DNA of 64,000 nt from Escherichia coli (GTDB lineage Bacteria > Pseudomonadota > Gammaproteobacteria > Enterobacterales > Enterobacteriaceae): NCBI RefSeq assembly GCF_044324785.1, contig NZ_CP172127.1. One strand, given 5' to 3'. Positions 52,601 through 55,600 of the stretch are shown here, one piece after another. Position numbers: made by a program. Position 1 is the first letter of the stretch; every line of letters begins with the position of its first letter.

Positions 52601-55600
52601 ATGTGCTTACAGCCAAACATGGTTATGATATTGATTATATTTACTATGCCTTAAGACTTGAATTAAAGCGATTGCGAGAAAAATCTCAAGGCTCGCAAAC
52701 AAAGTTTCTGACAATGCCGATTTTGACCAGTATATCGCTAGGAAACCTAGTCGAGACTGAACAATCGACAGTTTCAAGAGTATTAAAAATACTGGATAAA
52801 AAAATCGCTCTCAACAATCGTATCAACGCCGAGCTGGAAGCGATGGCGAAAACACTGTATGACTACTGGTTTGTACAGTTTGATTTCCCTGATGCCAACG
52901 GAAAACCGTATAAAACCTCCGGCGGGAAGATGGTGTACAACGCCACGCTGAAACGGGAAATTCCGGCGGGGTGGAATATTAAAAATCTTGGCGATATAGC
53001 GGAACTATATCAGCCTAAGACCATTTCAGGTAACGATTTTATTGATGATGGTGAATATCTTGTATATGGAGCCAACGGTATTGTAGGAAGATTCAATAAA
53101 TATAACCATGAAGAACCTGTCGTTACAATCACCTGCCGTGGAAATACGTGCGGCAATATAAACGTCACACGACCATATTCATGGATTACAGGGAATGCAA
53201 TGGTGGTTAAGCCAAAGTTTAACTATATTTCACCTTATTATATTTATAATTTATTGTCGATATCGGAAGTTGATAAAGTCATTACTGGCTCTGCTCAACC
53301 TCAAATTACGCGAGCAAACCTAGCTCCACTTAAGGTTGTTGAACCAGCAGAGGACATTACGCAAAAATACTCAAAGTCTGTTGATGCTTTTTTTAAAAAG
53401 CATATCTCAATATTAGATGAAAATGATAATTTATTAAAACTCCGCGACTGGCTCCTCCCCCTGCTTATGAACGGACAGGTCACGGTCAAATAATCCCCGC
53501 CGTGTTTTGCGAGGCGCATTCCAGATCCACATTGCGCCGCGCTCACCGCTGTAAAACCGCTTGCCGTTCATAACCGATCGAAGTATCTTTCTCCCGCGCC
53601 TGCAAAATCAGGCGTCGGGATTAGCCTCCTGAAAACCGTTACAGGCGACACTTGACGCACCAGCGTCTTTTTTGTGTCGTGCGTTCGGCTACACCTCAAT
53701 GGCGGGCCGGGCGGGGGCGTCGCAAGACGCGCCGGTTTCCTGTAACGCCGGTAAGGCTAACCCCGTCCGGTTCCGCCACCCATGAGATTAGCCTCTCTAG
53801 TGGCGGACATAATAAACCGTTACAGGAGATGCCCTATGGCTACAATCCTCACCCCTGACTGCGATTTACTCGATCTGTTATCCGTTCCCTTCAATGCCAC
53901 CACGGATTTTACTGTCCTTGCCGATTACTGCACCCGCTTCGCCGAAACCCTGATAGAAACCGACGATCCCGCGCTGCGGCTGGCGCTGAGCGGACGGCTT
54001 CACGCGGCTCTTGCGCTACTGCAACCCACACTGCATGACCCCATCCCGCCGCATCTTACCGAAAGCCTGACCGTTAATACCCTTCCCGCCACACCAGAGC
54101 ACTTTATTTCCGAACCCGATTCCTTGTGCGAATACTGCCTCGCACTGCTCCAGCTTCTGCTGGAACGCCCGGCGGAGCCAAAAATGGAGCAAACCCTGAC
54201 CGGGCTGCTGTGTGAGCTGGTCTGGAATTTCACGGAAGGACTCAAATCCCCGCGCTGGCTGCGTACCGCCGACGGCGTAAAATTTATCAGTGAGGTGGCC
54301 GCATGATGCAACAGGACTGGCATTCCACCGACATTATCGCCACGCTGAAAAAGCGGGGAACGTCTCTGGCGGCGCAGAGAAAAACTCATTGCGGACGCGC
54401 TGTAAATATCGTCAGAAATCATCTGGCCTTCAAGGTACTTTGATAGCAAAGGCAAGCAGGCTGGTTCAGTCCCGTGTTTCTCTTCTTGCATTTTCAGAAA
54501 TGGGAGGCTGGGAGTCTATCGAAATGGTTCGTCGATATGCTCACCTCGCACCTAATCACCTTACCGAACACGCACGGCAAATAGACTCGATCCTGAACCC
54601 ATCGGTCCCAAATTTGTCCCAGTCAAAAAATAAGGAAGGTACTAATGATGTGTAACTTATTGATTTAAATGGTGCCGATAATAGGAGTCGAACCTACGAC
54701 CTTCGCATTACGAATCTGTAGAACCAATCATAACTATCTGTTTTAGCAAGCATTAACCGCATTCACCAAGCAATAGTTGATGGCACAAACAGAAAGTTGA
54801 TGCATGATGTTGTCATGTGTATGTCACAAATACGGCACAACGATCTTCAAACATGTAGCCACCCAGCATAGAAGAGCACAAATCCTTGCAATCCAGTGCA
54901 AAGCTTTGTGTACCTTAGTTTTGTCTCATAGGTAATTCTGCTTTAACTGCGATGCAGGAATCTGTCACCAGACGCACGTCTCGTTGTTTTATGGTTTTCC
55001 GTTCATGATTAATATGTTAGCTTGTCAAAGTTTGTGTTTAAGATATGGTGATTGATGCAATGTTAAGCGTTCAGATGACTCCACAAGCAAAAGTTAGCTT
55101 CGAGGAGCAATGTTTTTTTCATGCTTCATGTCTTGTTGTTGCCCCAATAAATGTTGGAGCATTCTCCTACTTTGGCGCTAATTGTATGCTCGGCGGCTTT
55201 ACGATGGGTAGATTTTGTTCAGTTGCTCCAGGAGTAAAAATTGGCCTTGGCGAGCATGAAACTGGGTATTTTTCTACGCATCCTTTTTTCTTTGGCTCAA
55301 AAAATGGTTTTAAAATCCCTGATGGTATAGGAATGCAACGCGACCTCTCTCAACAGAAGCATGGTATACCAAGAATTGGTCATGACGTATGGATAGGTGC
55401 AAATGCGGTTATCAGGCGAGGTATAACTATTGGTACTGGCGCTGTTATTGCTGCTGGCGCTATTGTCACCAAAAATGTCGATCCATATTCAATCGTAGGT
55501 GGCGTTTCTGCAAAACACCTAGGGTACAGATTTGAGGAATCAATCATCAAAGAGTTACTGGATAGCCAATGGTGGGAATATGATTTAAGCTCATTTATTG

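Follow-up and report, generated by a model that had tools for sequence, protein, structure and literature searches.

A 64,000-nucleotide stretch of an Escherichia coli genome (assembly GCF_044324785.1, contig NZ_CP172127.1; hereafter the window) carries an open reading frame (ORF) of 156 aa on the plus strand (53836..54306, with its ATG at 53836 and its TGA at 54304-54306). Here an RNA-immunity circuit of a known kind, that of phages P4 and P1, has as its gated product a family of proteins not yet named in the databases. A preliminary description of this DNA had listed the ORF as an unrecognised gene. The feature that it overlooked, and that our reading of the sequence points to as decisive, is an IsrK/C4-type antisense RNA module directly upstream, with a target that overlaps the Shine-Dalgarno (SD) sequence of the ORF. 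Gating of the ORF by this C4/CI-type RNA is well supported by sequence comparison, and comparison of loci supports its place as the first cistron of an integrase-proximal operon in a family of tRNA-linked islands. Our explanation as a whole, in which a P4/P1-type RNA-immunity operon begins with the ORF and the ORF encodes the switch output, an antirepressor-like protein binder, is more tentative, and we regard it as plausible but somewhat short of probable.

A predicted C4-type RNA module upstream of the ORF

Three Rfam models match in order upstream of the ORF and on its strand. The first, c4-a1b1 (53583-53635), falls slightly short of its gathering score (43.8 against 46.7 bits). The second, isrK, exceeds its gathering score of 50 with 68 bits and marks an IsrK / P4-seqA-like leader RNA at 53596..53673, in which a terminator scan found an intrinsic terminator (stem 53654-53667, T-run to 53673). 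The third, RF01695, matches over the full length of the model with 79.9 bits against a gathering score of 45, and marks a C4/CI-type antisense RNA at 53695..53783. A promoter-like element, TTGCCG-17 nt-TATCTT, can be read from the sequence at 53561..53589 on the plus strand; a promoter consensus scan did not call it at the scan threshold, and the -10 region GTATCTTTT is kept upstream of the RNA module in most loci. Transcription from this element would start near 53596, coinciding with the start of the isrK model. The predicted folding of the entire leader is far more favourable than that of shuffled sequence (z = -6.1).

Within the C4 RNA, the b′ element UCCUGUAACG occupies the hairpin loop (53738-53747), and the a′ element AGGCUAA lies in the single-stranded stretch past the hairpin (53754-53760). 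Exact complements of both elements are present twice, with a1 (UUAGCCU, 53621-53627) and b1 (CGUUACAGG, 53637-53645) upstream of the RNA, and a2 (UUAGCCU, 53788-53794) and b2 (CGUUACAGGA, 53818-53827) downstream of it, all on the plus strand. Contiguous Watson-Crick complementarity extends over 7 nt for a′/a2 and 10 nt for b′/b2, and b2 overlaps the SD sequence AGGAG at 53824-53828. The ATG of the ORF follows 7 nt further on, in agreement with the good ribosome-binding site (RBS) that had been noted. An alternative reading of 174 aa would begin at an ATG at 53782; the SD-proximal ATG is the start in every homologue. The locus has the features of a C4/CI-type immunity operon: a C4 RNA upstream of the gene, an upstream a1/b1 copy, a downstream a2/b2 copy with b2 over the RBS, and co-variation of these elements. 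A C4 RNA (RF01695) also lies upstream of the gated gene in loci L002, L006, L011 and L014.

In several records, a coding sequence named 'ash family protein' (Pfam Phage_ASH) has been called exactly over the C4/CI RNA, at 8200-8358 in L001 (equivalent to about 53700-53858 of the window) and at 9865-10023 in L002-L005, and a 137-aa 'cI gene product' is still annotated over the CI RNA in the P4 record (L075, 8168-8584). Phage_ASH and 'ash family protein' look like the protein annotation of an RNA gene. In RefSeq and Pfam, an RNA gene is annotated as a protein while the real 156-aa protein is left 'hypothetical'. We also set aside the long 'fusion' homologues of the ORF (342-494 aa), where the only domain found, if any, was Phage_ASH from a gene call that had run into the C4 RNA region, and the rest had no Pfam match.

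RNA elements and their targets co-vary

For 35 distinct loci, we aligned the 160 nt that precede the start codon. These loci hold 15 b′ loops and 8 a′ elements in 22 specificity combinations, with a types and b types assorting independently among loci. Mean contiguous complementarity between cognate partners was 8.2 nt for b and 7.1 nt for a, compared with 4.4 and 3.4 nt for non-cognate partners, and no permutation reached the observed mean (0/10000). Counted by column, 93.8% of cells held standard pairs against 77.0% in shuffles (0/500 shuffles as high), and 97 cells were doubly changed against 23 in shuffles. Sliding the partner by 1-3 columns left 26-48% of cells paired, and compensatory change was seen in 11 of the 17 pairs. 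We conclude from this alignment that the a/b pairing is maintained by compensatory evolution.

Four genomes in the sample carry two or three copies of the module, and in each the non-identical copies differ in a/b specificity: E. whittamii (L019/L023), Enterobacter ENT03 (L027/L030), S. diarizonae (L047/L050) and Affinibrenneria (L040/L074). Differing specificities within one genome are what selection against cross-talk between co-resident islands would lead one to expect. The island specificities resemble the heteroimmunity of P1 versus P7 and of P4 versus phiR73.

The ORF is conserved and under purifying selection

By sequence comparison, the 156-aa ORF is a real, widely conserved gene without a known family. 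We found 409 homologues at E<=1e-3, all named 'hypothetical', from Escherichia, Salmonella, Klebsiella, Enterobacter, Citrobacter, Dickeya, Pectobacterium, Brenneria and other genera, and an exhaustive profile search gave 230 clusters at 50% identity. With one genome taken per species there were 56 loci, nearly all titled Enterobacterales, with the names Chryseobacterium and Martelella on two records. Across 24 sequences spanning several genera, 34 positions are invariant. In the 156-aa reading frame, the ratio of nonsynonymous to synonymous substitution rates (dN/dS) is 0.12 against E. coli K_EC180, 0.12 against E. whittamii and 0.16 against E. albertii. The module is common in E. coli: of 5426 complete genomes, about 800 have the thrW version, and the asnT backbone was found in 283. 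In phage genomes the gene is nearly absent: tblastn of 50,697 phage records returned a single match, a 1.5-kb unannotated record with an O157:H7 host.

The comparison with K_EC180 bears on when this selection acted. Between the two genomes, the RNA module has 2 mismatches in about 250 nt and the Ner/integrase remnant that follows the ORF is 4.7% divergent, with a dS of 0.20 for the ORF. Because K_EC180 carries the same truncated Ner and integrase remnants, purifying selection appears to have acted in the decayed state of the island. This assumes that the truncation is older than the split from K_EC180, an assumption supported by a gap-free alignment across the remnant.

Profile searches gave no family match to the ORF in Pfam, PHROGs, NCBIfam, PADLOC or PDB sequences, and nothing at E<=1 in Pfam, PHROG or NCBIfam. 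The ORF had been described as lacking a recognisable domain, a statement that might have been overturned by sensitive profile searches or by failure to find the gene in any related element. Instead, it is without a match even when profile and fold searches are used, and it is conserved in many related elements. We found no description of the 156-aa protein in the literature that was searched.

The window protein is acidic (isoelectric point 4.4, net charge -13), as is the family (net charge -6 to -22). The AlphaFold 2 (AF2) model of the protein alone has a mean predicted local distance difference test score (pLDDT) of 73.7 and a predicted template modelling score (pTM) of 0.68, with core blocks at roughly 81-95 in a second run. 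It predicts four long helices (25-41, 45-67, 94-110, 115-137) and a C-terminal beta-hairpin that holds a conserved PRWLRTADG motif, and the model gave no enzyme-like fold match. Almost no variation is seen at Cys32 and Cys98-x2-Cys101, which the model places on different helices of the bundle, whereas Cys58, present in most members, is Ala in the window protein. In the model, Cys32, Cys98 and Cys101 could be a metal or redox site. The CxxC suggested a ZAS anti-sigma four-helix bundle, which we rejected since the H-x3-C-x2-C motif and a Pfam zf-HC2 match are both lacking.

The ORF belongs to the backbone of tRNA-linked islands

Intact islands at asnT, asnW and pheV in E. coli, Klebsiella and Dickeya have one common order of parts: variable cargo, isrK-like RNA, C4 RNA, ORF, Ner, sometimes an XRE-family (HTH_3) gene, EFASI RNA (RF02957), Integrase_1, P4-type integrase and tRNA. 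The Integrase_1 gene (PF12834 and PF12835) encodes 294 aa. The P4-type integrase, with Arm-DNA-bind_3, Phage_int_M and Phage_integrase domains, is on the opposite strand and sits at the tRNA end. Among 42 distinct loci without a LexA box, Ner lies directly downstream of the ORF in 32, and Integrase_1 and the P4-type integrase are present in 23 and 24, respectively. Intact island Ner proteins have 68-84 aa, with a start that overlaps the ORF stop; they match Mu Ner (E = 8e-27) and the H-NS antagonist EnrR (E = 4e-22), and the modelled Ner fold superposes on 1NEQ and 7F9H. The EFASI RNA scores 99-119 bits and lies downstream of Ner, 50-100 nt upstream of Integrase_1 and in the same orientation (L014 11389-11517, L011 11300-11429, L002 11733-11861). 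Published work associates the EFASI motif class with STAXI, integrases and antirestriction genes, and places STAXI near c4 RNAs.

The cargo includes AbiE, type I restriction-modification (R-M) with DarT/Macro (DarTG-like) genes, ABC-three-component, TacAT, DUF4747 and PAAR/Rhs effectors. It was suggested that the ORF might occupy the integrase-proximal slot in which tRNA-associated islands usually keep regulatory or excision-control genes. The islands agree with this placement, as the 156-aa gene is conserved backbone rather than cargo, and a role in excision control is conceivable. Co-occurrence with AbiE or type I R-M, proposed as a check, is not specific, however, because the adjoining cargo differs from island to island. 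A complete asnT island that we examined consists of integrase, Integrase_1, Ner, ORF and cargo; it has neither P4 core genes nor genes for transfer, and no conjugation or packaging genes were seen in the islands examined. We did not find a tRNA-linked island backbone of this order described in the literature that was searched. In some places the RNA module and the ORF alone survive beside core genes or pseudogenes, as in the window and K_EC180, in L027 at serB-radA and in L030.

Two further observations concern these islands. About 1.4 kb without called genes separates Integrase_1 from the P4-type integrase in intact asnT islands (L014 12457-13825), and the pheV island L010 has a comparable gene-poor stretch after Integrase_1, with a degraded integrase. 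EnrR was followed as a lead and dropped, as EnrR-type Ner genes occur in another island type, where they come first in the operon and are followed by an unrelated 174-aa protein.

In the window, the stop of the ORF overlaps the start of a 46-aa Ner-like ORF (ATGA, 54303-54306), just as had been reported. This second ORF (54303..54443, plus strand) is a truncated Ner pseudogene: it matches only positions 1-20 of 75 of the Pfam HTH_35/Ner profile, and its first ~24 residues align with the intact island Ner before unrelated sequence takes over. Only about 24 Ner codons thus remain for comparison with Mu Ner or EnrR, in place of the full-length winged helix-turn-helix (about 75 positions) of Ner/HTH_35. 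The equivalent gene in K_EC180 is a pseudogene according to RefSeq, and the window has also lost the EFASI RNA.

A subfamily with LexA boxes

Members of a subfamily about 40% identical to the window protein occur in Pluralibacter, some Enterobacter and Citrobacter, and unnamed Enterobacteriaceae. They have the motifs TDF, LQPTLL-PIP, FTV-TLP, LC-YCL and APRWL in common with the window protein. The C4 targets a2 and b2 are absent from these loci, which instead carry, 15-25 nt before the SD, a canonical LexA box such as TACTGTATATAAATACAGT. These copies (L058, L059, L060 and L062-L065, at about 6900-7430 in each) occupy a fixed chromosomal slot in the order rcnB, GNAT acetyltransferase, ORF, apbC (on the opposite strand) and metG, and they have no Ner. 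From its upstream sequence, the subfamily is a candidate for an undescribed SOS-regulon gene.

LexA control is the other classic way of gating antirepressors, as in 186 Tum, Gifsy GfoA and GfhA, and N15 AntC. Control by LexA or by antisense RNA is likewise a signature of SulA, TisB and SymE, and SbmC is a further SOS-controlled inhibitor. The subfamily resembles the LexA-gated antirepressors and SOS inhibitors in having a LexA box and in encoding small proteins of about 150 aa. However, the window family has no sequence similarity to Tum, GfoA/GfhA, AntC, SulA, TisB, SymE or SbmC (Pfam DinI, SulA and GyrI were not matched), so that the likeness is one of control type and not of homology.

A different leader was seen in L022, L032 and L049, whose proteins have MPDF or MPNF variants of the N-terminus. 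In these loci a structured leader about 270 nt upstream of the ORF start contains the complementary segments GAGGACUCAAAAC ... GUUUUGAGCCUC, as well as a loop complementary to the region just before the SD. By its sequence, this leader may be a second class of gating RNA.

Comparison with P1, P4 and Gifsy-1

In the immI region of P1, the C4 RNA covers the RBS of icd, and ant is translationally coupled to icd. The likeness of P1 and P7 to the window lies in the C4-family RNA and its a′ and b′ elements, in the two target copies a1/b1 and a2/b2, in a b2 that overlaps the RBS of the leading gene, and in translational coupling of that gene to the one behind it; the two phages also differ from each other in specificity, as the islands do among themselves. 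In contrast, the protein gated in the window is not Icd or Ant, its gene is followed by a Ner homologue, and the host element is an integrase island rather than a plasmid prophage.

The P4 immunity region matches the same three Rfam models in the same order (c4-a1b1/isrK 8615-8705, C4 8420-8507). There, the c4-a1b1/isrK match corresponds to seqA and the C4 match to the CI RNA, followed by epsilon, which derepresses the helper phage, and by ORF151, cnr and alpha. As in the window, one target copy lies upstream and one downstream of the RNA on a single strand, and immunity specificity resides in short complementary elements that co-vary; the P4-type integrase at the tRNA end of intact islands is a further likeness. 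The gated genes are unrelated, however, and alpha primase, sid, delta and psu are not present in the islands examined. Neither the window nor the intact asnT island has the combination of alpha, sid/delta/psu and epsilon with a P4-type integrase that marks a P4-like satellite prophage. P4 ORF151, of similar length and position, and P4 epsilon were rejected as relatives of the ORF (hhalign probability about 0.1%, with 0.08% for epsilon). According to the Gifsy-1 paper, the P4 CI RNA pairs with seqA and seqC and acts mainly through transcription termination. The window differs in that its downstream target falls right on the first gene's SD, 52 nt beyond the RNA, an arrangement like that of P1.

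The same paper gives the order in Gifsy-1 of Salmonella as isrK, orf45/STnc1160 and anrP, describes AnrP as antirepressor-like, and treats IsrK as a structural homologue of P4 seqA. In both Gifsy-1 and the window, the IsrK-type RNA ends at a terminator of its own, read-through leads on into a C4-like segment, and the gene for the gated protein comes next. The short IsrK RNA of Gifsy-1 activates translation through orf45, and the a1/b1 RNA of the window is a putative decoy or activator. Unlike AnrP, the 156-aa ORF shares no domain with antirepressor families. As the circuit is of a known kind and its RNA elements come in the order seen in P4, the ORF sits in the slot of P1 Ant, P4 epsilon and Gifsy-1 AnrP.

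A proposed switch and its possible outputs

By analogy with P1, P4 and Gifsy-1, the leader would be transcribed constitutively, and the C4 RNA would be processed from it and act in trans. In the presence of C4 RNA, its pairing with b2 over the SD would block translation of the ORF. In intact islands, translation of Ner would be blocked along with it through coupling at the overlapping stop, and downstream transcription may be blocked too, as in P4. The protein would then be made only when the C4 RNA is absent or titrated, which could happen on arrival in a naive cell, when the a1/b1 (IsrK-like) RNA acts as a decoy, or upon loss of the RNA. We speculate that the 156-aa protein, as the output of this switch, probably binds and inactivates another protein, most likely a DNA-binding regulator, and that this target is perhaps not encoded by the island. 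We propose an antirepressor-like binder because the ORF has an equivalent slot in three characterised systems, because LexA control appears as the alternative, and because the fold is acidic and shows no enzyme-like match.

Several results weigh against this role. The ORF has no sequence or fold similarity to known antirepressors, with no matches to Bro-N/ANT/P22_AR in Pfam, to PHROGs or to BFVD. Pfam does recognise the P22-type Ant encoded in the same window (58205-59083), so the search for antirepressors works as a method. No candidate target repressor gene is encoded nearby, and what follows C4 directly in P1 is not ant but icd, which encodes an inhibitor of cell division. The LexA-type copies hold a fixed slot in the core genome, and pairs of C4 RNA and ORF persist under purifying selection after Ner and the integrase of the island have decayed. 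Both of these observations agree no less well with a function that is self-sufficient or directed at the host than with the derepression of a mobile element.

The main alternative is that the ORF encodes an RNA-silenced inhibitor of growth or the cell cycle, similar to Icd or to a type I toxin-antitoxin (TA) system, with the C4 RNA as the antitoxin and the RNA and ORF as a self-stabilising pair. We consider this possible but on balance doubtful. It explains better than an antirepressor why the pairs outlive their islands, with orphan C4 and ORF beside core genes or pseudogenes (the window, K_EC180, L027 and L030) in which the ORF has a dN/dS of 0.12 and the RNA is nearly invariant. The icd precedent in P1 and the control by LexA or antisense RNA that SulA, TisB and SymE have in common, together with the LexA boxes seen here, fit it as well. 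However, the protein looks soluble, is acidic and 150 aa long, lacks the hydrophobic helix typical of type I toxins and resembles neither Icd nor SulA nor any PADLOC or TA model, and a fixed SOS paralogue in the core genome argues for a regulated physiological function over addiction. An establishment or anti-defence factor, for example an acidic DNA mimic that inhibits restriction or other DNA-binding enzymes in a burst upon entry into a C4-free cell, would agree with the uniform acidity of the family, with a circuit logic that allows expression only before the RNA accumulates, and with the EFASI RNA in the operon of intact islands, given the antirestriction genes associated with that motif class. 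We hold it to be improbable, as the protein has no similarity to ArdA, KlcA, Ocr or known anti-restriction families, the islands examined lack conjugation and packaging genes, and selection maintains the gene in immobile remnants and in SOS-controlled copies on the chromosome, for which expression at entry has no relevance.

The ORF product could also be a dedicated partner of the adjoining basic Ner-like protein, as a chaperone, antagonist or co-regulator. The ATGA overlap with Ner in 32/42 loci and the opposite charges of the two proteins favor such a pairing. So does a weak hint from an AF2 model of the ORF fused to Ner through a 30-residue linker and run with a genome-paired alignment, in which the conserved SLTVDTLP loop (71-90) is more ordered, with a pLDDT of 81/63 instead of 56/49 and an added beta bridge. 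Against this, the pTM of the fused model is only 0.51, Ner is nearly invariant while the ORF diverges to about 57% identity, and the ORF remains under selection where Ner is missing, in the LexA subfamily and in orphans including the window; we therefore think this partnership unlikely. Finally, the ORF might be meaningless, or a leader cistron whose translation matters but whose product does not, given that it has no recognisable domain and that an ORF listing alone is no evidence for a gene. The conservation data effectively refute this: dN/dS values of 0.12-0.16 and the 34 invariant positions do not suit such an ORF, homology extends to the ~40%-identical subfamily with its common motifs, and the core of the AF2 model is confident.

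A broader reading would treat the C4-type RNA and the protein as a portable two-part switch with a new class of gated effector, under the control of an island-specific antisense RNA when mobile and of LexA when domesticated in the chromosome, and directed at the host or at a co-resident prophage. Such a protein may derepress resident prophages, block a host DNA-binding protein or halt the cell cycle after DNA damage. We offer this as a speculative reading, less likely to be right than wrong by some distance.

The island remnant at thrW and the adjoining prophage

The window is E. coli DNA, and its paoC is 99.5% identical to that of strain N3. The window island is a decayed remnant at thrW, and its content is limited to AbiE, hsdRMS, the RNA module, the 156-aa ORF and pseudogenes. 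To the left of the RNA module lie AbiEii (45680-46600) and AbiEi (46587-47390) on the minus strand, and hsdR (47632-50751), hsdM (50910-52382) and hsdS (52375-53493) on the plus strand, all recognised by Pfam and also annotated in K_EC180. To the right, a 68-aa C-terminal remnant of a tyrosine integrase (54452..54655, plus strand) shows a weak Pfam Phage_integrase match at its C-terminal end, and RefSeq lists the equivalent position in K_EC180 as 'integrase, incomplete'. The ORF does lie, as first described, between an R-M system and an integrase remnant.

Next to the integrase remnant is a 46-nt 3′ fragment of tRNA-Thr (thrW; 54670..54715, minus strand), an exact match to the thrW 3′ end that occurs once in the window. 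ARAGORN found no complete tRNA in the window, and no second thrW repeat was found at the left end of the island. In K_EC180, the same island lacks the prophage and lies beside an intact thrW and proA. thrW is cut at the junction because a P22-like prophage, identified by its P22-like genes, has inserted into it; the prophage starts at 54716, in the region 54670-64000, and an intact copy of thrW must lie beyond the window.

The prophage encodes an O-acetyltransferase (55045-55716), a tailspike (55736-58105) and, on the minus strand, the Bro-N/P22_AR antirepressor of the P22 Ant type (Pfam). The last of these belongs to a P22-type immI region (58205-59151), in which a sar antisense RNA (59085-59151, plus strand, 65.6 bits) adjoins the Ant gene about 5 kb from the ORF. 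With the sar/Ant pair and the C4/ORF pair, the window holds two unrelated slots gated by antisense RNA, only one of which has a recognisable antirepressor. An IS009 RNA family match (35552-35752, minus strand, 189.5 bits) between ykgJ and yagU is unrelated to the ORF.

Significance

C4/CI-type RNA immunity is textbook material for P1 and P4, and here it gates a protein family named in no database. The backbone to which the gene belongs carries changing anti-phage and type VI secretion system effector cargo at asnT, asnW, pheV and thrW across Enterobacterales. If the RNA and protein do form a portable switch, the many RNA specificities would let several islands coexist in one genome without cross-talk, and the family would be a new addition to the SOS regulon of Enterobacteriaceae as well as the regulatory core of widespread, undescribed tRNA-linked defence islands. 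If the protein is the output of the switch, knowing its target would explain how defence islands are silenced, induced or moved, and would also assign a function to the SOS-box gene that lies between apbC and the GNAT gene beside rcnB in several genera.

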